Assembly (NCBI RefSeq): GCF_036365525.1
Contig: NC_090379.1
Location: 50,216,500-50,280,499, forward strand
DNA length: 64,000 bases
DNA from: Heterodontus francisci
Lineage: Eukaryota
Direction of reading: 5' to 3'
Position numbers and translations under genes: made by a program. How positions within the stretch are numbered: the first letter of the stretch is position 1; each line of letters opens with the position of its first letter. The notes beneath the pieces are model-generated. The model was not told the DNA's origin, searched no databases, and was given only the letters and a program-made list of their open reading frames with translations. This document shows positions 1 to 48,219 of this stretch, piece after piece.

Positions 1-1860
1 GAGAATAATGCCAATTAATGAGGCTATTAATGAGCTCACTGTCAGCTCGTTAAGGGCCAGTTTGGGATTTTGGTGGGGGCGCATGGGTTGCACGCTGGAT
101 CAAGGACAGACCAGGTGCATGGAGGCAGCAAGACAGCGGGGAGCCAGTTACGGCCACATCATGATATTATGTGGGCCCATAAAAGGGAGAAGGGCTGAAA
201 GGAGCATTCATTCATTGGCGCACAAGTGCCATTGGTTGTGCAGAGGTTGTGGGAAGAGTAATCTGCACGCACTTGGGCAGTGTAGGGAATCATTACCCTC
301 TTGGCATTGTAGGGGGCATAAGAGGAGGGATTTGGAGTTCCAGATATTACTGTAAGTGCAGCTGAGGGCAAGTAAGGCAACAGCTGGAAATGGGAACACG
401 ATTCTCAAATATTGGGTCCAATGGCGATGAGGATCAATATCCTCAGCAGCAGAGTCTCAGCCCCGGACAAGAGGAGGGCAAAGGAGGGGACAAAGGGCAG
501 GAAAGCAACGGTGGCCACATCTTCAGCATAGAGTGTACCCCTGAAAATGGAACGACCTGGACATGTTGGAGAACCAATGCCGCAGGCGACTGCGACTCTC
601 CAGGCAGTAACTTTGAGCTGCCTATGAGAACAATTTCACTGAAGATGCAGCCTTGAATAGATCCACTCTTATGGCCAATGAATGATGCAGGTCTATCCAG
701 AGGTTTTGCTGTTCTCCTTCAAAGACCTTTATTTCTGTTCACCACTTCTTCCCGCTTTTCCAGTTTTGCCATTAAAGAATGGAAGCTCACACATTTGGCG
801 TCATGTCTCAATATTTACAATGTCTTCCAAAAGTTACAAAGTGCACAGTTACAAGTGAAGCAGAGCCCAGTGACCCACTCAGTGCTTTGCCTGACAGACT
901 GGCCTCCACTCTCGGCCACTTCTATGCTGTGCTTCCCTTGTGGCCTCGGATGAGGTGGAGCCAGCCTGCTCACTTGTCTCTGCTTGCGACTGAGATACAC
1001 ATGGCTGTTGTCTTCTTTGTGGAGGTCAGTGGGAGGCACCTCCAGAGGCTACTGCACCGGTGTCATTGCTGGGACAGCCTCCATCACAGGGCCCTGCTGC
1101 ATAGATGATCCCTCAGTCAGAGGGGTCAAGGAGGCTGATGACGATGGTGGTGCTCGATGAGGGGTGGCACCTTCATCCTCCTCGGTGACTCCCGGATGGC
1201 TGGAGGGGAGCACCAGTTGGGGTGCAACTGGCATCCACGCCAAACATTTTAAGCCATCTGCAGCACTGACTAGTCAATGCTACAGAATGTTGCATAGATT
1301 CTGTGCATGTCAGTGCACAGTTCCTGCATCCACTCGGCGTGCTGCTGCATATGACTGTCCATGAGGTTGGCCACTCTCTCAATGGAAGAGCCCATGCGTT
1401 CAATGCCCTGACCCATGGCACTGCACATGGGTTGAATAGAATTCTCCATTCTCAGCCCATGACTGTGCACTGCCTCGGGGAACTATGACATTTGGGAGCA
1501 TATCTGTTGCTGCGAATCTGAGTACAGCCTCCTTACCTGTGACCGTCGAGGCCCTGCATCTATTCCCAGCTAAGCATGCCTGGGCTGAATTTTCCAGAAA
1601 GGCCTGTAGTACCACTGCTGGGACTGGAAGCAGGATTCACTGCCACTGGGTTGGGGGGTTGGGTACGGGGTGGGGCATGCTGAAGTCTGCGATTGAGTTG
1701 CAGCTGACCAATTAACTGTTGGGAGTTGGAGGAGCCGTCCACTCAGGTGACCCGGGTGGGGTGAGATCACGCCGCTGAAAGTGCAGGCACCGTATTTAAA
1801 GAGCTGCCAGCACTCTGATAATTCCATCCACCCACAAAGACAGCACAGTGAAGCCCTGAA
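1..1860. mobile_element. Degenerate PIF/Harbinger DNA transposon remnant
   Basis: 530-607 (+) translates RVYP*KWNDLDMLENQCRRRLRLSRQ, like the HARBI1-type transposase N-terminus seen at 22.9 kb and 53.8 kb. The GC-rich remainder is assigned by context and the boundaries are approximate. Confidence 0.5.
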
Positions 1861-1865
1861 TAAGA

Positions 1866-2645
1866 AGCTCTGGATTTGTTTGCCCTACCTTTTCCCTTCA
1901 AGGGAACATACTTCGACTGCGCCCAAACTATCTCTTCTTTGAAGGTAGCCCATTGTTCAGCTACTGTTTTTCCTTCCAATCTTTGACTCCAATTTATTCT
2001 CCCAGCTACATACTTACCCCATTGAAGTTGACTTTCCCCCTGTTAGTTAATTTTAATCTGGATTGTTCTTTGTCCTTTTCTATAGTCAGCCTAAATCTTA
2101 GGATACAATGATCACTTACCCCTAAATGATCTCCCATTGATACTTGATCCAGTTGGCCCACCTCATTCCCAAGAACCAGGTCTAGCAGTGCCTCCTTTCT
2201 CGTTGGACTAGAAACATACTACTGTAGAAAATTTTCCTGAACATATTCTAAGGAACTCTTGCCCCTCACTGCCCTTTACACTACTACTATCCTTGTCTGT
2301 GTTTGGATAATTAAAGTCCCCCATTATAACTACCCTATAATATTTGCACCTCTCTGTAATTTCCTTGCAAATTTGTTTCTCCACGTTCTTCCCACTAGTA
2401 GGTGGCCTATAGACAACACCAAACCCCTTCGTAATTTTAAAGATCTCTATTTATCACCCTTCAGCCTTCACTTCTCTAGAGAAAAGAGACCCAGCCTGTT
2501 CTGTCTTTCCTGGCAGTTATAATCTCTCAGTTCTGGTATCATCCTTATCAATGTTATTTGCACTTTTTCCAATGCCATTATATCTTTTGCGTAATATGGA
2601 GATGAAGTGTGCACTACGTTCTAAGTGTGGTCTAACCAAGGTTCA
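1866..2645 (-). mobile_element. CR1 LINE fragments (endonuclease/linker and RT 3' part, internally deleted)
   Basis: ORF 1767-1979 (EQWATFKEEIVWAQSKYVPLKGKG) is CR1 ORF2 linker. The downstream piece matches the CR1 LYxxLVRPHLEY region. Confidence 0.8.
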
Positions 2646-4254
2646 ATAATTCCTACTTTATATGTTAGGGATTAAAAATGGGGTTCTGTTCACAAATAGA
2701 ATATTGGAGCTATTTGAGCATCTCAGACACCCAAAGCAATTCTTCTACATATTTGTAGATTGGACCTCTGCTAATGTAATCAAACAAAGAAACCTACTTG
2801 TGCTCTCTCACATCATTTGACACATGTACTGCAAATGATCAGTCTACAGTCAGGCCTTTTAAAGGTTTTTCATAGTATGTATAGTAAAACAGCCCAATTC
2901 TGAAAGCCAGAGGGGAGGGGGATTCGGGTTTCATCATGACAGATTAACAGTAAGTAGGTAATCTTGGAGGTGGCGCATGCATCATCAATCTGCAACAGAG
3001 AGCAGAAACGTAGAATAAGCCCTGCCTCAATCCTATAGTACTTCTATTATTTTTAAACAAAAAGACCCCCTCCGCTTGGAATCCCCACAGTGCTGCATAG
3101 GATGCTATGGAAAAAAAACCATTCTGAACTTGACTTGGACATGAGCTAAACTTTCTTCCTACTGGGAATCAGTGTTAGCTGTTATTAAACCATCACAGTG
3201 CCGGGTGAACCAATTTAGTAGTTCTTACATCTACCGATGGGCTGGGTTGGGGGTTGGTGATCCGCCGGCAGCTAAATTCATTGGATTCCTCTTATTTGAA
3301 TCTTGGATAGAATTCATTCAAGCCTTTTGCACACGAAAAGGAAAGGTTTCCCTTTCACAAGATTACTATAAATACACTGGAAATTTTCCTCCAAACTGAT
3401 GAAACCTGATTGTGAATTTAAATTGAAGGTACTGCAAATTTGTAAATCATCTGGGTTGAAAAAGATTGGAGAATATCAGAACTCCTTCATTTGTCACCTA
3501 GACCATTATTCCTCCTGGAAATTTATTCACTTTAACAGAGCTGCAATCACTGCAGACTCATTTATATCCTTTATGCTCAGACCCTGTATCGTAATCTGCA
3601 TTTAAATCCACAATGACAGATTGAATTCATCTGCTGCATTTACACTGTGGGAAGATCCATTTAGTTTATGGGTAGACACACACATATATACACATATCAG
3701 AAGCCGTGTTAATTTTTACTGTGTATGTGTGCCCATTTTCAAGTTAATTGGACCTTTTAACAAAAGGTTGCTGGAAAAAAACAGGAGTCCTCTGCATGGT
3801 GTGAGTGGTATGGGGAGGATGTGACTGCTATGACTGGAAGATTGAGTCTTTAGTCCACGACCAGTTTGTACTAACATGCATCCATATGCAGGTGCAGCAC
3901 AGATGCAAAGTACATAACTTAACCAACTCATAGCCCCAATTTTGCAAAGACAACATAGTTGTGTTTCTGCCTGCCCACACCATGGGTACATCTATGTTAG
4001 CTGATGAGAGGGCTGGCCTCTCCAAACTTATGAAGCTAGTCACTCCTCCTCATATGTTCCTGGATATGGAAAACAAACACAAAAAACTTGGCAAACTATG
4101 CAAGTGGCTGGGGAACAGGAATTCTGACAAGTTCGCAACCTTTAAAGGGCTGCTTCTCACTATTAAAGGGGCACGCTATTTTGTTTGGCTGAAAACTCAT
4201 TTTACTGGGAACACAATGAAAGCAGGGAAATATATTGGGAAATTCCCTCCCATG

Positions 4255-19302: not shown

Positions 19303-19305
19303 ATT

Positions 19306-19423
19306 AATTAAATTTAAATCCCACCAGTTGCCATAGTGGAATTTGAACCCATGACCCCAGGGCATTAGCCTGTGCCTTTGGATTACTACTTTAGTCAAGT
19401 TACCACTCCACCACTATCTCCCC
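19306..19423 (-). mobile_element. tRNA-Leu-like SINE/LINE head fragment (same head as 43062)
   Basis: Reverse complement aligns to 43062-43185 (ggggagatagtggtggagtggtaac...catgggttcaaattccac...aattaat). Confidence 0.75.
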
Positions 19424-20063: not shown

Positions 20064-20104
20064 CAAGAGTCTAGTTTCTTCATGCTTGGGATACAAAATA
20101 TAAA

Positions 20105-21050
20105 AGTGCTGTCGAAGGAGCTTTGGCGAGTTGTTGCAGTGCATCTTGTTGATGGTGCACACTGCTGCCACTGTGCACCTGTGATGGAGGGATTGAATAT
20201 TTAAGGTTGGGATGGTGTGCTGATCAAGCTGGCTGCTTTGTCTTGCATGGTGTTGAACTTCCTGAGTGTTGTTGAAGCTATACTCTTCCAGGCAAGTGGA
20301 GAGTATTCCATCACACTCCTGACTTGTGCCTTGTAAACGGTGGACAAACTTTGGGGAGTCACGAGGTGAGTTACTCACTGCAGAATTCCCAGCCTCTGAC
20401 CTGCTCTTGTTGTCATAGTATTTATATAGCTGGTCCAGTTCAGTTTCTGGTCAATGGTAACCCCAGGATGTTGATGGTGGGGAATTCAGCAAAGATAATA
20501 CTATTGAACATCAAGGGGAGGTGATTAGATTCTCTCTTGTTGGAGATGGGCATTGCCTGGCACTTGTGTGGCCTAAATGTTACTTGCCACTTATCAGCCC
20601 AAGCCTAAGTGTTGTCCAGGTCTTGCTGTCTGTGGGCACAGACTGCTTCAATACCTGAGGAGTTGCGACTGGTACTGAACACTGTGCAATCATCAGAGAA
20701 CATCCCCACTTCTCACCTTATGTTGGAGGGAAGGACATTAATGAAGCAACTGAAGATGGTTGGCCTGAGGACACTACCCTGAGGAACTCCTTCAGTGATG
20801 TCCTGGGGCTTAGATGATTGGCCTCCAACAACCACAACCATCTTCCTTTGTGCTAGGTATTTTTCCAGCCAGCGGACGGTTTTCCCCCGATTCCCATTGA
20901 GTTCAATTTTGCTAAGGCTCCTTGATGCCACACTTGGTCAAATGCTGCCTTGGTGTCAAGGCCAGTCACTTTCACCTTACCTCTGGAACTCAATTCTTTT
21001 GTCCATGATTGGACCAAGGCTGTAATGAGGTCTGGAGCCAAGTGGCTCTG
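20105..21050 (-). mobile_element. Fragment of the tRNA-headed LINE family (RT region)
   Basis: APDLITALVQSWTKEL, AAFDQVWHQG and [18 protein letters not shown] are homologous to 45100-46030. Confidence 0.9.
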
Positions 21051-31282: not shown

Positions 31283-33235
31283 TTTTTTTTATTCATTCAT
31301 GGGATGTGGGCGTCACTGGCTATGCCAGCATTTATTGCCCATCCCTAATTGCCCTTCAGAAGGTGGTGGTGAGCTGCCTTCTTGAACCGCTGCAGTCCAT
31401 GTGAGGTAGGTACACCCACAGTGCTGTTAGGAAGGGACTTCCAGGATTTTGACCCAGCGACAGTGAAGGAACAGCAATATAGTTCCAAGTCAGGGTGGTG
31501 TGTGACTTGGACGGGAACTTGCAGGTGGTGATGTTCCCATGCATCTGCTGCTCTTGTCCTTCGAGGTGGTAGAGGTTGCGGGTTTGGAAGGTGCTGTCTA
31601 AGGAGCCTTGGTGCATTGCTGCAGTGCATCTTGTAGTTGGTACACACTGCTGCCACTGTGCGTCGGTGGTGGAGGGAGTGAATGTTTGTGGATGGTGTGC
31701 CAATCAAGTGGGCTTCTCTGTTCTGGATGGTGTTGAGCTTCATGAGTGTTGTTGGAGCTGCACCCATCCAGGCAAGTGGAGAGTATTCCATCACACTCCT
31801 GACTTGTGCCTTGTAGATGGTGGACAGGCTTTGGGGAGTCAGGAGGTGAGTTACTCGCCGCAGGATTCCTAGCCTCTGACCTGCTCTTGTAACCACGGTA
31901 TTTATATGGCTACTCCAGTTCAGTTTCTGGTCAATGGTAGCCACTAGGATGTTGATAGTGGAGGATTCAGCGATGGTAATGCCGTTGAATGTCAAGGGGA
32001 GATGGTTAGATTGTCTCTTGTTGGAGATGGTCGTTGCCTGGCACTTGTGTGGTGCAAATGTTACTTGCCACTTATCAGTCCAAGCCTGGATATTGTCCAG
32101 GTCTTGCTGCATTTCTACACGGACTGCTTCAGTATCTGAGGAGTTGCGAATGGTGCTGAACATTGTGCAAACATCAGCAAACATCCCCACTTCTGACCTT
32201 ATGATTGAAGGAAGGTCATTGATGAAGCAGCTGAAGATCAATCGAGGCATAGGTTACAAAAACAGGGAGGTCATGTTGGAGTTGTACAGAACTTTGGTAA
32301 GGTCACAGCAGGAGTCCTGTGTGCAATTCTGGTCGCCACATTATAGGAAGGATGTGATTGCATTGTAGGGGGTGCAGAGGCGATTCACCAGGATGTTGCC
32401 TGGGATGGAACATTTAAACTATGAAGAGAGGTTGGATAGGCTTGGGTCGTTTTCGCTGGAGCAGAGAAGACTGAGGGGTGACCTGATCGAGGTGTACAAG
32501 ATTATGAGGGGCATGGACAGGGTGGATAGGGAGATGCTGTTCCCCTTAGTTGAAGGGTCAGTTACGAGGGGTCACAAGTTTAAGGTGCGGGGCGGGAGGT
32601 TTAAGGGGGATTTGAGGAAGAACTGTTTTACCCAGAGGGTGGTGACGGTCTGGAATGCATTGCCTGGGAGGGTGGTAGAGGCAGGTTGCCTTACATCCTT
32701 TAAAAAGTACCTGGATGAGCACTTGGCACGTCATAACATTCAAGGCTATGGGTCAAGTGCTGGCAAATGGGATTAGGTAAACAGGTCAGGTGTGTTTAAT
32801 ACATCGGTGCAGACTCGATGGGCCGATGGGCCTCTTCTGCACTGTATTATTCTGTGATTCTGTGAAGATGGTTGGGCCTAGGCCAGTACCCTGGGACTGA
32901 GGAACTTCTGCAGTGATATCCTGAAGCTCAGATGATTGACCTCCAACAACCACAGCCATCTTCCTTTGTGCTAGGTATGACTCCAACCAGCAGAGAGTTT
33001 TACCCCTGATTCCCATTGACTCCAATTTTACTAGGGCTCCTTGATGCCATACTTGGTCAAATGCTGCCTTGATGTCAAGGGCAGTCACTCTCACCTCACC
33101 TCTTGAGTTCAGCTCTTTTGTCCATGTTTGAACCAAGGCTGTAAAGAGGTCAGGAGCTGAGTGGCCCTGGCGGAACCCAAACTAAGCATCACTGAGCAGG
33201 TTATTGCTAAGCAAGTGCTGCTTGATGGCACTATT
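31283..33235 (-). mobile_element. 5'-truncated copy of the tRNA-headed LINE family, split by a CR1
   Basis: ORF 31345-32250 (301 aa) is near-identical to 45390-46271 and ORF 32786-33136 continues it upstream. The RT motif reads FADV (inactive). Poly(A) at ~31283. Confidence 0.93.
32239..32862 (+). mobile_element. CR1 3' fragment with 7-bp TSD
   Basis: ORF 32372-32776 (QRRFTRMLPG...[13 protein letters not shown]...FTQRVVTVWNALP), (attctgtg)n tail and TSD TGAAGAT at 32232-32238 and 32863-32869. Confidence 0.95.
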
Positions 33236-34614: not shown

Positions 34615-35982
34615 ACTATAATCCATTATCAAAGATTTTATAGCAGAGTACTTAGAGAACAGTGGTAGAATTGGGCAGAGTCAGCATGGATTTACGAAAG
34701 GGAAATCATGCTTGACAAATCTACTACATTTCTTCGAGGATGTAACTAGTAGAGTTGATGAGGGGGAGTCAGTGGATGTGGTTTATTTGGACTTTCAGAA
34801 GGCTTTCAACAAAGTCCCACATAAGAGATTAGTGTGTAAAATTAAAGCGCATGGGATTGGGGGTAGTGTATTGGGATGGGTAGAAAATTGGTTGGCAGAC
34901 AGGAAACAAAGAGTAGGGATAAATGGGTATTTTTCTGAATGGCAGGCAGTGACTAGTGGGGTACCACAGGGATTAGTGCTAGGACCCCAGCTATTCACAA
35001 TATATATTAATGATTTAGATGATCTAAATGTAATATCTCCAAATTTGCAGATGACACAAAACTGGGTGGGAGAGTGAGTTGTGAGGAGGATGCAAAGAGG
35101 CTTCAGGGTGATTTGGACAAGTTGAGTAAGTGGGATAATGCATGGCAGATGCAGTATAATGTGGATAAATGTGAGGTTATCCACTTTGGTCGCAAAAACA
35201 GGAAAGCAGATTATTATCTGAATGGCTATAAACTGAGAGAGGGGAATATGCAGCGAGACCTGGATGTTCTCATACACCAATCACTGAAGGTAAGCATGCA
35301 GGTGCAACAGGTGGTAATAAAGGAAAATGGTATGTTGGCCTTCATAGTGAGAGGATTCGAGTACAGGAGCAGGGATGTCTTGCTGCAATTATACAGGGCC
35401 TTGGTGAGGCCACGCCTGGAATATTGTGTGCAGTTTTGGTCTCCCTATCTGAGGAAGGATGTTCTTGCTATGGAGGGAGTGCAGCGAAGGTTTACCAGAC
35501 CGATTCCTGGGATGGCCAGACTGATGTATGAGGAGAGATTGAGTCGGTTCGGATTATATTCGCTGGAGTTCAGAAGAGTGAGGGGGATCTCATAGAAACC
35601 TATAAAATTCTAACAGGACTTGACAGGGTAGATGCAGGAAGGATGTTCCCGATGGTGGGGGGGGGGAGTCCAGAACCAGGGGTCCTAGTCTAAGGATAGG
35701 CGGTAAACCTTTCAGGACTGAGATGAGGAGAAATGTCTTCACCCAGAGAGTGGTGAGCCTGTGGAATTCGCTAACACAGAAAGCAGTTGAGGCCAAAACA
35801 TTGTACGCTTTCAAGAAGGAGTTAGATATAGCTCTTGGGTCTAAAGGGATCAAAGGGTATGGGGAGAAAGCGGGAACAGGTTACTGAGTTGGATGATCAC
35901 CCAGGATCATAATGATTGGCAGAGCAGGCTCGAAGGGCCGAATGGCCTACTCCTGCTCCTATTTTCTATGTTTCTGTGTTTC
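34615..35982 (+). mobile_element. CR1 LINE, RT to 3' tail
   Basis: [37 protein letters not shown] and (ttctatgt)n tail. Confidence 0.95.
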
Positions 35983-39100: not shown

Positions 39101-41115
39101 CCATCTTGTTATGAATGCTGCATGACAGCTTTAATTCTGTTTTTTTACAATTTTTCCCTAGCCTGACCCTATTTGCTGATGCACCCTGCCCCTTCTTGTC
39201 AGTCTGATTATCATTACCTTTATCGCTACCCTGCACTATTGCCTTGTCCTTTCTCATTAATTTTCTAAATCTCCCCTTGCCCCTACTATTTAGTTTAAAG
39301 CCCTCTCTACAGTCTTTGTTATACGATTTGCCAGGACACTGGTCCCAGTACGGTTCAAATGAAGCCTGTCCTAATGGTACACCTTCCTCTTTCTCCAGTA
39401 CTGATGCCAGTGCCCCATAAAGTGAAACCCATTTCTCCCACACCAATCTTTGAGCCACGCATTCAACTCTCTGATTTTATTTACACAATGCCAATTTTCT
39501 CGTGGCTCAGCTAGTAATCCAGAGATTATTACTTTTGTGGTTCTAATTTTTAATTTAGTCCCGAGCCACTCATCCTCCCTCAGCAGAACCTCCATCTTAG
39601 TCCTACCTATGCTGTTGGGTACCTATGTGGACCACACAACTGGATCCTTCACCTCCCACTCCAAGTTCCTCCCCAGCCCTAAGAAGATGTCCTTAACTCT
39701 GGCATCGGGCAGGCAACACAGCCTTCAGGACTCATGCTATTGGCTGCAGAGAACAATATCTATCCAGATAACTATACTGTCCCATACTACTACTACATTC
39801 CTTTTCACTTCCCCCAATTGAATGATCCTCTATACCATGGTGCTGTAGTCAGTTTGCTCATCCTCCCTGCAGCCCCTGCTCTCATTTACATTGGCAGCAA
39901 GAACCTCAAACCTGTTGGGCAAATACAAGGGCTGAGGCTCTTCCAGTGCTACCTTCTGGATCCCGATACCAGCCTCACTCACACCCTCCTGTCCCTGACC
40001 ACGTACCAAATCTGAAATATCTACTCCTAAGGGTTGTGACTGCCTCCTAGAATGAAGTGTCCAGATAAATTTCTTCCTCCCTGATGCATTGCTGTCTGAA
40101 GCTCAGATTCCAGCTGATCAACTCTGAGCCGAAGTTCCTCGAGCTGCAGACACTTACTGCAGATGTGATTGCAGTGGATCACACTGGTGTCCACCAGCTC
40201 CCACACGATACAGCTGCAATACATCAGCTGCCCTGCCATCTTTATTGTATTTTGTTTAACCAATTAGGGATTCACATTTAGAAACATTGCTCAATGGTAA
40301 TTTGTAGTTATAGGCAAGTAGCTCATCTCCTGACTCCCCAAAGCCTGTCCACCATCTACAAGGCACAAGTCAGGAGTGTGATGAAATACTCTTCACTTGC
40401 CTGGATGGGTGCAGCTCCAACAACACTCAAGAAGCTCGACACCATCCAGGGCAAAGCAGCCCTCTTGATTGGCACCCCCTCCACAAACATTCACTCCCTC
40501 CACCACCAACGCTCAGTGGCAGCAGATGCACTGCAACAATGCACCAAGGCTCCTTAGACAACACCTTCCAAACCCATGACTTCTACCACCTAGAAGGACA
40601 AGGGCAGCAGATGCATGGGAACACCACCACCTGCAAGTTCCCCTCCAAGCCACACACCATCCTGACTTGGAACTATATCACCGTTACTTCAATGTTACTG
40701 GGTCAAAATCTTGAAACTCCCTTCCTAACAGCACTGCGGGTGTACCTACCCCATATGGACTGCTGCGGTTCAAGAAGGCGGCTCACCACCACCTTCTCAA
40801 GGGAAATTAGGGATGGGCAATAAATGCTGTTCTAGCCAGCGATGCCCACATCCCATGAATGAATAAAAAAAATTAAGTAGTTTAACCAGTTAAGCTATAA
40901 ATTTAATACAGTACTTATATCTTCCCAGTACCAGTTTAGAGAAAATAAAAGAAACCTTAAAACTCACCAAGCTATCACCTACCTGCTTAACTAATTAATG
41001 CCTCTGGATTTCAGCTCTCAAGTCTCACTGTGTCCCTCTCTCGGATCCCTCCTTGTTCTGTAAAAGACTAGAACAGCATCTCTTCCCTCACTGCGCCAAA
41101 TTCCCACACTCACCA
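36112..41115 (-). mobile_element. Near full-length degenerate CR1 LINE (5'UTR, ORF1 zinc finger/leucine zipper plus SGNH esterase, ORF2 APE-RT, tail)
   Basis: ORF1: CSCIVWE...CSKCLQLEELRLRVDQLESEL and KVIISGLL...LNAWLKDWCGRNGFHF. ORF2: PTREQAILDLVMCN, GKSDHNILEF, DWKTTNVTPLFKKG. Tail at 36112. The 5'UTR extent (40873-41115) is inferred. Confidence 0.88.
40313..40872 (+). mobile_element. 3' fragment of the tRNA-headed LINE family
   Basis: HLLTPQSLSTIYKAQVRSVM, with the same tail and poly(A) as 46260-46335. Confidence 0.92.
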
Positions 41116-42085: not shown

Positions 42086-43061
42086 TGTGGCAGTCGACTC
42101 AGTGCATCAAAAACTTTCCTACCTATGTGCTGATCCCCTAGCTTACTGCTGCAATCTTCAGTCAGAATTGGCCTCATAAGGGCTGCATTCTTCATTTCCT
42201 AGGCTCAATCAAGTGTACTACACATGTGTTCCACAGGAGTTGCACTACTGAACCACCAATAGATATTAAAACCAACTAACCCCACAATTTACAGAGGGTA
42301 AGCGTTGGCAAGCATCAACGGGGGACATTCCCAACTCATATGTGTAACACTGGTGTAAGCAGCACCATGGCATTTTGGGCCCACTTGAGAATAAATATAA
42401 TATTGTCACCTCCCAAATCCATGCCCATCATTCCTGGAACTCCATGTTTGAATCTCTCCAATCAGGTTTCCACCCCTGTCACAGTATTGAAACAGCTCTT
42501 ATCAAAGTCACTGATCACATCCTATGTGACTGTGACAAAGGAAAGCTTTCTCAATCTGTCTGCAGCCCATGACATGGTAGGCCACACTATCCTCCTACAA
42601 AGTGGCTGCACTGTCGTCCAGCTGGGTGGGACTGCACTCACCTGGTTCCATTCTTATTGATCTAATCATAATTAGAGTATCACTTGCAATGGCTTCTCTT
42701 CCTGCTCCTGCACTGTTACCTCTGGTGTCCCCCAAGAACCTATCCTTGGCCCCCTCCTATTTCCCATCTACATGCTACCCCTTGGTGACACCATCCAAAA
42801 GCACTGTGTTAGTTTTCACATGTATGCTGACCATACCCAGCTCTACCTCACCACCACCTCTTTCAACTCCTCCACTGTTGCCAAATTATCAGACTGCTTA
42901 TCTGACATCCAGTACTGGATGAGCAGAAATTTCCTCCAATTAAATATTGGGAAGACTGAAGCCATTGTTTTCAGTCCCTGCTCCATACTCCGCTCCTTAG
43001 CTATCAACTCCATCCCTCTCCATGGAAACAGTCTGGAACTAAACTGTATGTTCGTAACCTT

Positions 43062-46000
43062 GGGGAGGCAGTGGCATAGTGGTATTGTCACTGGACTAGT
43101 AACCCAGAGACCCAGGGTATTGCTCTGGGGACATGAGTTCAAATCCCACCACAGCAGAAGGTGGAATTTGAATTCAATTAATAAATCTGGAATTAAAAGC
43201 TAGTCTAATGATGGAACCATGAAACCATTGTCGATTGTTGTAAAAACCCAACTGGTTCACTAATGTCCTTTAGGGAAGGAAATCTGCTGTCCTTACCTAG
43301 TCTGGCCTACATGTGACTCCAGACCCACAACAATGTGGTTGACTCTTACATGCCCTCTGAAATGGCCTACCAAGCCACTCAGTTGTATCTAACCGCGATG
43401 AAGTCAATAAAAAGGAATGAAACTGGACGGACCACCTGGCATCGACCTAGGCACCGGAAACGACAATGGCAAACCGAGCCCTGTCAACCCTGCAAAGTCC
43501 TCCTTACTAACATCTGGGGGCTTGTGCCAAAGTTGGGAGAGCTGTCCCACAGACTAGTCAAGCAACAGCCTGACATAGTCATACTCACGGAATCATACCT
43601 TACAGACAATGTCCCATACACTGCCATCACCATCTCCGGGTATGTCCTGACCCACGAGCAGGACAGACCCACCAGAGGTGGTGGCACAGTGGTATACAGT
43701 AGGGAGGTAGTTTCCCTGGGAGTCCTCAACATCGACTCCGGACCCCATGGTCTCATGGCATCAGATCAAACTTTGACATGGAAACCTCCTGCTGATTACC
43801 ACCTACTGCCCTCCCTCAGCTGATGAGTCAGTACTCCTCCATGTTGAACAGCACTTGGAGGAAGCACTGAGGGTGGTGAGGGCACAAAATGTACTCTGGG
43901 TGGGGGACTTCAATGTCCATCACCATGAGTGGCTCGGTAGCAACACTACTGACCGAGCTGGCCGAGTCCGAAAGGACAGAGCTGCTAGACTGGGTATGCG
44001 GCAGGTGGTGAGGGAACCAACACGAGGGGAAAACATACTTGACCTCATCCTCACCAATCTGCCTGCCGCAGATGCATCTGTCCATGACAGTATTGGTAGG
44101 AGTGACCACCGCACAATCCTTGTGGAGACAAAGTCCCGCCTTCACATTGAGGATATCCTCCATCGTGTTGTGTGGCACTGCCACTGTGCTAAATGGGATA
44201 GATTTCAAACAGATCTAGCAATACAAAACTGGGCATCCATGAGGCGCTGTGGACCATCAGCAGCAGCAGATTTGTACTGAACCACAATCTGTAACCTCAT
44301 GGCCCAGCATATCCCCCACTCTACCATTACCATTAAGCCAGGAGACCAACCTTGGTTCAATGAAAAGTGCAGGAGGGCATGCCAGGAGCAGCACCAGGCA
44401 TACCTCAAAATGAGGTGTCAACCTGGTGAAGCTACAACACAGGACTATCTGCATGCCAAACTGCGTAAGCAGCATGCGATAGACAGAGCTAAGCAATCCC
44501 ATAACCAAAGGATCAGATCTAAGCTCTGAGGTCCTGCCAAATCCAGCCATAAATGGTGGTGGACAATTAAACAACTAACTGGAGGAGGTGGCTCCACAAA
44601 TATGCGCATCCTCAATGATGGGGGAGCCCAGCACATCAGTGCAAAAGATAAGGCTGAAGCATTTGCAACAATCTTCAGCCAGAGGTGCCGGGTTGATGAT
44701 CCATCTTGGCCTCCTCCTGAAGTCCCCAGCATCACAGATGCCAGACTTCAGCCAATTCGATTCACTCCGCGTGATATCAAGAAATGACTGAAGGCACTGT
44801 ATACTGCAAAAGCTATGGGCCCTGACAATATTCCGGCAATAGTACTGAAGACCTGTGCTCCAGAACTTGCCGCGCCCCTAGCCAAGCTGTTCCAGTACAG
44901 CTACAACACTGGCATCTACCCTGCAATGTGGAAAATTGCCCAGGTATGTCCTGTACACAAAAAGCAGCACAGGTCCAACCCGGCCAATTACTGCCCCATC
45001 AGCCTACTCTCAATCATCAGTAAAGTGATGGAAGGTGTATTGCTTAGCAATAACCTGCTCAGTGATGCTCAGTTTGGGTTCCGCCAAGGCCACTCAGCTC
45101 CTGACCTCGTTACAGCCTTGGTTCAAACATGGACAAAAGAGCTGAACTCAAAAGGTGAGGTGAGAATGACTGCCCTTGACATCAAGGCAGCATTTGACCG
45201 AGTATGGCATCAAGGAGCCCTAGCAAAACTGAGGTCAATGGGAATCAGGGGGAAAACCCTCCACTGGCTGGAGTCATACCTAGCACAAAGGAAGATGGTT
45301 GTGTTGTTGGAGGTCAATTATCTGAGCTCCAGGACATTAGTGCAGGAGTTCCTCAGGGTAGTGTCCTAGGGCCAACCATCCTCAGCTGCTTCATCAATGA
45401 CCTTCCTTCAATCATAAGGTAGGAAGTGGGGATGTTCGCTAATGACTACACAATGTTCAGCACCATTCGTAACTCCTCAGATACTGAAGCAGTCCGTGTA
45501 GAAATGCAGCAAGACCTGGACAATATCCAGGCTTGGACTGATAAGTGGCAAGTAACATTCGCGCCACACAAGTGCCAGGCAATGACCATCTCCAACAAGA
45601 GAGAATCTAACCATCTCCCCTTGACATTCAACGGCATTACCATCTCTGAATCCCCCACTATCAACACCTTAGGGGCTACCATTGACCAGAAACTGAACTG
45701 GAGTAGCCATATAAATACCATGGCGACAAGAGCAGGTCAGAGGCTAGGAATCCTGAGGCGAGTAACTCACCTCCTGACTCCTCAAAGCCTGTCCACCATC
45801 TACAAGGCACAAGTCAGGAGTGTGATGGAATACTCTCCACTTGCCTGGATGGGTGCAGCTCCAACAACACTCATGAAGCTCGACACCATCCAGGACAAAG
45901 CAGCCCACTTGATTGGCACACCATCTACAAACATTCACTCCCTCCACCACTGACGCACAGTGGCAGCAGTGTGTACCATCTACAAGATGCACTGCAGCAA

Positions 46001-46335
46001 TGCACCAAGGCTCCTTAGACAGCACCTTCCAAACCCGTGTCCTCTACCAACTAGAAGGACAAGGGCAGCAAATACATGGGAACACCACCACCTGCAAGTT
46101 CCCCTCCAAGTCACACACCATCCTGACTTGGAACTATATCGCCGTTCCTTCACTGTCGCTGGGTCAAAATCCTGGAACTCCCTTCCTAACAGCACTGTGG
46201 GTATATCTACCCCACATGGACAGCAGCTGTTCAAGAAGGCTGCTCACCACCACCTTCTGAAGGGCAATTAGGGATGGGCAATAAATGCTGGCCTGCCCGT
46301 GACGCCCACATCCCATGAATGAATTAAAAAAAAAA
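43062..46335 (+). mobile_element. Full-length CR1/L2-group LINE with tRNA-derived head, single ORF and poly(A)
   Basis: A-box TGGCATAGTGG (43072-43082), B-box GTTCAAATCC (43137-43146), ~250 nt SINE-like body, APE-RT ORF, short 3'UTR and A10 tail. Confidence 0.92.
43398..46271 (+). pseudogene. Disrupted APE endonuclease-reverse transcriptase ORF
   Basis: LLTNIWGL, PDIVILTESYL, RGGGTVVY, VGDFNVHH, ILDLILTN, SDH (APE). [46 protein letters not shown] (RT). Several stops and frameshifts. Confidence 0.92.
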
Positions 46336-48219
46336 TTTGACCCCGAGATGAGCTTCCAACCGTATATTTGCGTCATTCCTAAGACTGCCTATTTTCTCCT
46401 CCATAACGTCGTCCCACCTGACCCCTGTCTCTAGCTCATCTGCTGCTGAAACCCTCATTCATATTCTTGTTACTTCTAGACTTGACTATTCCAACCACTC
46501 CTGGTGGGTCTCCTACATTCTCCTCTTCGTAATCTTGAGGTCACCCAAAATTCTGCTGGCCGTGTCTTAATTTGCACCAGGTCCCATTTGCCTATCACCA
46601 CTGTGCTCATTGACCTACATTTGCTCCCAGTCAAGCAATGTCTTGATTTTAAAATTCACATCCTTGTTTTCAAATCCCTCCATGGCCTCACACCTCCCCC
46701 CTCCCCCTCCCCACCTCTGTAATCTCCTCCAGCCCCACAACCTCTGAGATATCTGCACTCCTCTAATTCTGGCCTCTTGAGCTTCCCAATTTTAATCACT
46801 CCACCACTGGTGGCCGTGCTTTCAGCTGCCTTGGTCCTAAGCTCTTGAATACCCTCCCTGCATCTCTCTGCCTCTCCACCTTGCTTTCCTCCTTTAAGAC
46901 ACTCCTTAAAACCTTCCTCTGACAAAGCTTTTGATCATCCTTCTGTGGCTCAGTGTCATATTTTGTTTTATAATGCTCCTGTGTAGCGCCTTGGGATGTT
47001 TTATTGCATGAAAGGTGCTATATAAATATAAGGTGTTGTTTGCTGTTATTGTTGCTGTTGTTTTAGAGATAACCCTGAATTTTCCATAATAAAAATAATA
47101 ATAACAAATGCCTTGAATTTGTTTTCTTTCCACAAAAGACCTCTTTGCACATGCGGCCCAACTGTAAATGTGTAGTGGAGAATTCAATGCTCTAATTGGC
47201 TAATTCACCAGATTATTTAGTACAATTATTATTATTGAACTTGACTCTACAGGAATCAGACTCCAAACAACATGTTTAATGCAGAGATCAATAGTGCTTG
47301 TTACTAATTCATTTTTAGTATTTCACCTTTCCGCAAAGAACAATTTCAAAATAGATGTTCCCCCCTTAGCAACAGCAGTCGTTATGTGCTTTTGGAGACA
47401 TGCTAATCATACTTTGTCACCACATAGAAGTTGTACAATGCTTACTGCTGCAAATCTAAGAGCTTTCTGTGATTGAAAATCAATATTTCACTACAGTGCA
47501 GAATGACGTTAAATGCACAGAAAACTGCACTTCAAAAATATGAAATGGCCAAAGTAAACTTCATACATATTTGAGGTGTCAGCTGGTAGCAAAACCTCAC
47601 TAATCATCTCTACAAACCAGCTGAGGACTATTGTTACATACATGGAAAAGTTCCACTTATACATTTTACTGTTTCAATGCTTTTACTGGCATTTAATCAC
47701 TTGGATTCAGTTCAGGCCTTTTCAATATCTGTTCACATGGCTTAGAAAGTGAAGAAAAGCCCTACCAGCCTGACTCCATGGAGAAGTCAGTTTGCTTTCA
47801 GTTGAGTTGGATCTTTAAATAATTCAATATTTTATTCAGTAAAGCTTAGGCTTGTAGCATTTTGGGACTTTTACTGACGGCCTGAAAGGGATTTTGCTTT
47901 AATGCATGTCGTATTTGTATAAAGGCTGGATTCAGCTTACAAAGGATTAACTCCCAGAGGTGGAGCTTTTTTTTGTTTACCTAACACATAAAACTATTCA
48001 GAACATTGATTAGAATGGTGGGGATACCAGACAGGGCAGACTTTTACATGCTATACTAACCTTGAGACATGGAGGTATATTTTCAACTGGCTGCCCAAAC
48101 ATAAAACTACCATTATAAATTGGTCACCCATAATAGAAAACACTCAATTTTATTTCAACTGATTTCAAGGTAAATCCTGCCATACTTACCTGACACCTAC
48201 CCACCATGACATTGGCACA

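Follow-up and report, generated by a model that had tools for sequence, protein, structure and literature searches.

By the accepted rule, long interspersed elements (LINEs) use RNA polymerase II (Pol II), or Pol I in the case of R2, and Pol III is used only by non-coding short interspersed elements (SINEs). An A-box and a B-box form the type 2 Pol III promoter, and runs of four or more T (T4+) terminate Pol III in vertebrates. A stretch of 64,000 nucleotides from Heterodontus francisci (contig NC_090379.1, positions 50,216,500 to 50,280,499, here called the window) was analysed and found to contain, at 43062..46335 (+), a full-length, dead copy of a LINE with a transfer RNA (tRNA)-derived head and a single open reading frame (ORF). 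The sequence features of this LINE suggest, with a probability of roughly 0.6, that the autonomous element was transcribed end to end by Pol III from its head. It is treated here as a variant of the single-ORF LINE; confirmation that Pol III transcribes it and that its translation is cap-independent would make it an element of a new kind.

The DeuSINEs SacSINE1, SacSINE1-CM and LmeSINE1 are, as far as their accessible descriptions go, alike in having a tRNA head with A and B boxes, a central body and a LINE-type tail. The length of SacSINE1 is 463 bp in the accessible text of PMC2746220, and that of the long SINE form of the present genome is about 480 nt. Homology between SacSINE1 and the LINE that donated its tail, L2-2_CM, is reported at the tail only in the available part of PMC5499810; the present LINE, compared with this pair by description only, itself has head and body before a 975-codon ORF. 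RIME, NARTc, Bov-A and WALLSI3 are bipartite, non-autonomous derivatives in which LINE 5' and 3' ends are joined by internal deletion, and SINE bodies have been proposed to come from the 5' untranslated regions (UTRs) of LINEs (PMC5786205, in its accessible portion). The model given there adds a small-RNA head after the deletion and leaves the autonomous LINE with Pol II, whereas the coding element studied here already bears its head. R2 and Perere-3 are also single-ORF LINEs, and their RNA, a Pol I co-transcript or the product of ribozyme cleavage, lacks a cap and is still translated (PMC8501958, in the part available), which sets an example of initiation without a cap; they employ ribozymes and host promoters for Pol I or Pol II, while the present LINE has a predicted A/B-box promoter of its own. 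Cassandra, Helenus and Ajax (TRIMp3), long terminal repeat elements of 311–1,263 bp, resemble it in having a small-RNA-derived Pol III promoter but are non-autonomous and non-coding, and their autonomous partners are argued to use Pol II in the accessible text of PMC10886601.

Like SINE2 elements, the present element begins at its 5' end with a tRNA-derived head that contains A and B boxes; it is not short and non-coding, being 3.3 kb long with a selected ORF, and only its deletion forms are SINEs. It is an APE-type LINE in that its dispersed copies end alike at the 3' side, have an A-rich tail and are cut short to varying extents at the 5' side. The nearest proteins (P0001-P0012) were 43–49% identical over the reverse transcriptase (RT) half, of similar length and mostly from environmental contigs, and the nearest proteins with a named source were from amphioxus (P0126, P0139). 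In a quick tree the element and single-ORF APE-RT LINEs of marine invertebrates formed one supported clade, apart from the CR1s of the genome. L2 and Crack are the LINE clades named as partners of DeuSINEs. DNA was compared for 80 related loci, in which P0007 alone of P0001-P0012 is represented, through L070, which groups with it. The single-ORF marine-invertebrate relatives with DNA differ from the present LINE in having normal T-runs, and they show no A/B-box head. A scan of viral contigs gave no match, and no description of a tRNA-headed coding LINE was found in a literature search that did not cover Repbase, Dfam and most subscription papers.

Architecture of the element and its family

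The window copy measures 3,274 nt, and the family length is about 3.29 kb. Its head, with a long variable arm, occupies 43062..43160 (+), and copies of the family start at the G of 43062. The A-box (TGGCATAGTGG, 43072..43082, +, from element nt 11) and B-box (GTTCAAATCC, 43137..43146, +), both of Pol III type 2, were located from the sequence and from column conservation at the positions given by the original prediction. The same prediction had called the head tRNA-Leu-like, a label that found no support: ARAGORN gave tRNA-Thr(AGT) in four of the five sister copies tested and called no tRNA in the window. The Rfam scan of the window gave no family at gathering score and weak matches only, among them a tRNA-clan match to the head at 17.8 bits. 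The anticodon arm and long variable arm (L058:404-500) may resemble those of a class II tRNA, for example Ser(AGA), which is a single change away from Thr(AGT).

The head is followed by a 5' UTR body (43161..43384, +) that is common to the SINEs of the genome. An in-frame AUG-GCC, followed in the window copy by UAC (43362..43370, +), precedes the single frame (43371..46271, +), which comprises a basic N-terminal extension, an APE endonuclease and an RT (PF03372, PF14529, PF00078). The 3' UTR between the stop codon (46269-46271) and the poly(A) (46326-46335) is 54 nt long, close to the 55 nt predicted, and contains AATAAA at 46280, about 45 nt 5' of the poly(A), then (TGAA)n and A10. The predicted death of this copy was confirmed: the frame is broken by six in-frame stops (43774, 44278, 44527, 44785, 45420 and 45951), frameshifts at 43750 and 45303 and a 24-nt deletion at 45039, and reads FAND where the family has FADD.

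A query spanning the head and the head–ORF junction gave 4,032 candidates in the 6.0-Gb genome. Forty were scored, including the window copy, and all 40 covered the query from nt 1-5 at no less than 93%. Twenty of the other 39 were contiguous and full-length, at about 3.29 kb, and lay 2.9–5.9% from the column majority; the rest were interrupted, deleted or 3'-broken. Because this sample had been selected by its head, a head-independent sample was taken, consisting of 60 of 150 matches to a mid-ORF protein query (20 picked for long frames, 40 by rank order). The 5' ends piled up at nt 1-6 in 20 of the 60 (7/20 long-frame, 13/40 rank-order) and were otherwise scattered truncations, so that full-length copies start at the tRNA head as had been supposed. 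The upstream flanks of the 60 had nothing in common save one 66-nt match between two copies, which gives no sign of an ORF1 or an alternative 5' end and removes a hidden ORF1 as a candidate. Contigs from four coded organisms, of presumed RNA origin, bridge body and ORF, and none has a readable transcript start or end. The head–ORF architecture is thus family-wide and not private to the window copy, which excludes chance adjacency of a SINE and a LINE. Insertion into a tRNA or SINE target was rejected on the grounds that no SINE remainder follows the tail and the flanks are unrelated; no consistent target-site duplication was found among 20 copies. The absence of an ORF1, also predicted, is real but weak as evidence, since the closest homologues likewise encode one APE-RT protein on contigs of about 3.2–4 kb.

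The family is abundant: in two non-random samples, 272 kb of control loci and the window, its matches made up 4.2% and 11% respectively. Members were often nested in or beside one another (L031, L035, L178, L343, L069), L035 being a SINE form inside a LINE copy. Subfamily-diagnostic sites in 100 copies were mosaic along the element, which suggests many simultaneous source elements or frequent template switching.

T-run avoidance and the reading frame

The element contains no T4+ run and nine TTT at 21.0% T, as the original prediction had read it. The longest TTTT-free stretch of the forward strand of the window is 42972-46391 (3,420 nt), the next being 1,193 nt. Sense TTTT is also absent, as claimed, from a 5'-truncated sister copy at 31283..32238 (−, 94% identical) and from an older internal fragment of the family at 20103..21046 (−, 85% identical), and a second 5'-truncated sister copy at 40312..40872 (+, 89% identical) lacks even sense TTT; the CR1 of the window does carry T-runs at 34930-34934 and 35434-35437. 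The number of T4+ runs expected in the element was 4.3 from base composition, 2.1 from a synonymous shuffle of the ORF and 1.6 from a dinucleotide shuffle, lower than the five to six first estimated. Zero TTTT is therefore weak alone, and the real signal lies in TTT and interrupted T-runs.

With protein and codon usage fixed, 4 TTT were observed in the ORF against 12.7 expected (ratio 0.31, P about 0.0005), and TTTT, TVTTT and TTTVTT numbered 0 against 4.2 (P = 0.006). The same treatment gave TTT ratios of 0.83 (27/32.4) and 0.92 (35/38.1) in two other LINE families of the genome, and a minimum of 0.79 and median of 0.99 in 72 related ORFs of at least 300 aa from the 80 loci, so that the predicted depletion beyond codon-shuffled and other-LINE controls was borne out. 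A control first labelled L2 proved CR1-like by tail repeat and tree, and both genome controls are thus CR1-type. The ratio of T to C at third codon positions was 5:49 before T and 50:117 before C (P = 0.002), an effect absent from the CR1 controls; its log odds ratio of −1.35 lay beyond all 66 homologues of at least 400 aa (minimum −1.17). Phe accounted for 1.85% of residues, less than in any of 119 homologues (minimum 1.98, mean 3.63; the outlier P0013 excluded), and the codon TTA was not used. In 22 older fragments (10,508 nt) there were 5 T4 against 21.5 expected by composition, compared with 49 A4 against 56.1. A-runs, which are antisense T-runs, occurred at expectation in the element, as did pyrimidine tracts and GTRAG; AWTAAA was not depleted, and six A(A/T)TAAA lie along the element, two of them in the head. 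Avoidance of splice sites or polyadenylation was rejected as a cause because these motifs are not depleted, and avoidance of self-cleavage or homopolymers because A-runs are not. The avoidance of T-runs is specific to this LINE lineage and to its coding strand.

The family frame extends for 975 codons from stop to stop (nt 308-3232), with APE and RT domains and FADD, and the three Pfam domains were matched in natural copies. Among variants present at 10% or more in 100 copies, the count of non-synonymous to synonymous changes was 25/43, compared with 1605/514 for singletons (P = 3e-11, CpG-type changes excluded). The source elements therefore made a working protein, and the ORF was under purifying selection in them. 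No intact present-day copy was found among 100 projected copies; in the 150 scored matches, which were the best candidates only, the longest frames were one of 860 aa and a chance fusion of 1,073 codons. The fusion (L300, G000:C3:89131504-89136204, −) consists of a 5'-truncated copy inserted, with the frame preserved, into the endonuclease part of a different LINE, and contains two APE domains.

The in-frame AUGs near the start all precede the UAG of an AUG-GCC-UAG cassette, which is present in 53 of 76 copies. In the other 23 the codon after AUG-GCC is CAG (8), TAC (6, including the window copy), GAG (5) or others. The first in-frame Met past the UAG is codon 285, and nine upstream AUGs lie in the first 300 nt of the family, all 5' of the ORF. 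The UAG after the AUG and the nine upstream AUGs make ordinary scanning to an AUG unlikely for most copies, whichever polymerase is used, and initiation is likely to be non-canonical, perhaps at a UUG or by re-initiation or read-through. The common variants at nt 325, 334 and 343 are all synonymous, suggesting that the basic N-terminal extension, of a kind also seen in some homologues, is translated. When the 5' 337 nt of one copy were folded, z was −1.97, no evidence of an internal ribosome entry site.

Transcription of the element

In the mechanism proposed, TFIIIC would occupy the A and B boxes, transcription by Pol III would begin at G+1, and 3.3 kb free of terminators would be needed. Translation of the uncapped RNA would do without cap-dependent scanning and proceed through internal entry, re-initiation or read-through, from the AUG-GCC-UAG cassette or a near-cognate UUG five codons past the UAG. 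Target-primed reverse transcription, starting at the 3' tail, would let the LINE protein copy the RNA that encodes it, and internal deletions of LINE RNAs would yield SINE families. The original claim of selection to stay transcribable by Pol III is partly supported, by the junction and by the T-run depletion; its Leu label and the direction of the chimera that it assumed do not share that support. The pile-up of 5' ends at the head, the purifying selection on the ORF and the nine upstream AUGs also count in favour of the mechanism. So does the lack of such a head among related loci: upstream A and B boxes were found by pattern in none of 80 and a tRNA was called in none of the 43 scanned, although many of these contigs may lack true 5' ends.

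Several results weigh against this mechanism. The absence of T4+ taken alone gave P = 0.009, 0.089 and 0.18 by base composition, synonymous shuffle and dinucleotide shuffle, and is non-significant under two of the three nulls; one CR1 control was itself mildly depleted of terminator-like sites (10 vs 16.2, P = 0.013). Gains of T beside T were seen in 6/15 recent shared variants and 83/168 singletons, which gives no sign of avoidance in a comparison of low power. The processivity of Pol III is held to limit the length of SINEs in the accessible text of PMC10886601. At the 3' end, no terminator is shared by the whole family. In 102 tails a single T preceded the A's in 50 and four to six T's in 12; the A tails rarely exceeded 11 nt, and n+m in T(n)A(m) stayed near 10, which fits later change of A to T. 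The T-runs of the tail thus look post-insertional, and the tail counts do not support them as terminators. The T(n)A(m) pattern also suggests a genome-wide limit on the length of A-tracts, with conversion of A to T at the 5' edge. B2, Dip and Ves, which belong to the T+ SINEs, have AATAAA and a built-in terminator before the A tail; the present LINE has AATAAA without the terminator.

The remaining points against Pol III are also those that favour transcription by Pol II, whether the promoter lies inside the SINE-like 5' UTR or belongs to the host, with the boxes as passengers and the avoidance of U-runs serving, for example, to escape U-rich-binding proteins or small-RNA silencing. The TT dinucleotide is itself avoided (O/E 0.71, 76 vs 96.6), beyond the strict need of Pol III termination. 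Conservation of the boxes was not significantly elevated over the rest of the head in seven old copies (16/113 vs 112/570, P = 0.19), three of which have a T>C change of the B-box in common. The head contains TATTT at nt 57-61 in about 47% of copies; TVTTT motifs end SINE transcription at 20–50% in cells and TATTT is a moderate terminator, according to the available part of PMC8466645. The AATAAA upstream of the poly(A) also fits Pol II, and the accessible portions of PMC5786205 and PMC10886601 assign LINEs to Pol II and SINEs to Pol III. Against Pol II, motifs relevant to that polymerase are not avoided (the six A(A/T)TAAA, and donors and pyrimidine tracts at expectation), comparable T avoidance is absent from the two CR1-type families and the 72 related ORFs, and the intact boxes begin 10 nt past the exact 5' end of full-length copies. 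On balance Pol II transcription is the strongest of the alternatives and is considered unlikely.

A division of labour, in which Pol III would make the template RNA and the protein would come from separate capped Pol II transcripts through host read-through or copies without the UAG, would account for the head and for the lack of terminators but is less probable still. Uncapped RNA is generally poorly translated, and the 23 copies of 76 without UAG after AUG-GCC would be available for such a role. However, the purifying selection on source elements fits a protein that works on the RNA encoding it. Most old copies retain AUG-GCC-UAG, the loss of UAG is spread beyond any one subfamily, and some other TAG triplets are equally variable. 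A neutral compositional quirk, with T avoidance produced by mutation bias of the RT and the head a one-off captured SINE without a role, is very improbable, for although the dinucleotide-preserving null accounts for the zero TTTT and comes close to accounting for the number of TTT in the element as a whole (P = 0.05), the synonymous-site bias depends on the next base and extends to amino-acid usage, is absent from the closest relatives with DNA, and both head and depletion persist in older copies.

SINEs of the genome and wider meaning

The young SINE of the genome, about 390 nt long, follows the LINE to nt 304, then has ACTCAGTT of nt 314-321, and is joined to about nt 3220 (30 loci). A second form joins nt 321-323 to 3213-3222 (6 copies), and a long form of about 480 nt, in which about nt 336-350 is followed directly by about nt 3152 (28/30 loci with both head and tail mapped), includes the first codons of the ORF and its last 27 codons. 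The 3' end of the window copy at 46188..46335 (+) is common to the long form from 46188 and to the short forms from about 46258. Old long-form copies were 10.4% from their own majority, versus 3.1% for the young SINE. Young long-form copies (L393, L417 and L281, 92–97% identical to the young LINE) coexist with the old ones at nearly the same breakpoint, which implies that the deletion recurred or that heads were exchanged.

The SINEs examined consist of LINE 5' and 3' ends that meet at several breakpoints, and they contain no further block. Deletion from a LINE that already bore the head fits this better than capture, which would have had to happen at the border of body and tail. Internal deletion of LINE RNAs is thus the likely source of the SINE families of the genome. 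In the SINE–LINE chimera first proposed the direction is probably reversed, or at the least undecided. Ten diverged LINE fragments (74–89%) span the junction, and in five of them 10-14 of the 20 bases that mark the old SINE head are present, so that the union of head and ORF dates back to an older generation; by these diagnostic bases, at least two generations of the LINE have carried the head. The 5' UTR body may resemble the Deu domain of SacSINE1, and the SINE families are presumably of the SacSINE1/Deu type.

Other remains of these families occur in the window. The fragment at 20103-21046 is older and decayed, with best genome matches of 87%; separate sister families, inferred from the diverged window copies, were rejected, as the best matches were just 81–87% and mostly to the young family. 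A lone head of the same type, 121 nt long and 74% identical, lies at 19303-19423 (−), followed by unrelated sequence, and may be a tailless or interrupted old copy. The full-length element is nested in an older C/T-rich LINE (42700-43061 and 46336-46700, +) with flanks that look continuous, and a decayed GVPQ..ILGP-like RT motif is legible near 42720-42760. This older LINE is presumably a true L2.

A wider possibility, which can be put forward tentatively and is rather doubtful, is that the whole lineage depends on Pol III, with a 3.3-kb Pol III mRNA and cap-free translation, that its 5' UTR is the Deu domain, and that the vertebrate DeuSINEs SacSINE1 and LmeSINE1 and, by exchange of heads, SINE3 and AmnSINE1 are its deletion products. 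If so, the element would be a natural Pol III mRNA shaped by the avoidance of terminators down to the choice of codons and amino acids, and the conservation of the Deu domain would be explained as that of a translation or RNA-structure element. An undiscovered L2-like partner was once proposed for AmnSINE1 (as cited in the accessible text of PMC9004415), and the LINE would then be that partner. If its RNA is made by Pol III, the manner in which an uncapped Pol III RNA is translated and the origin of SINE body domains would become directly testable; even if it is made by Pol II, the architecture would show how SINEs may originate by plain deletion of a head-bearing LINE.

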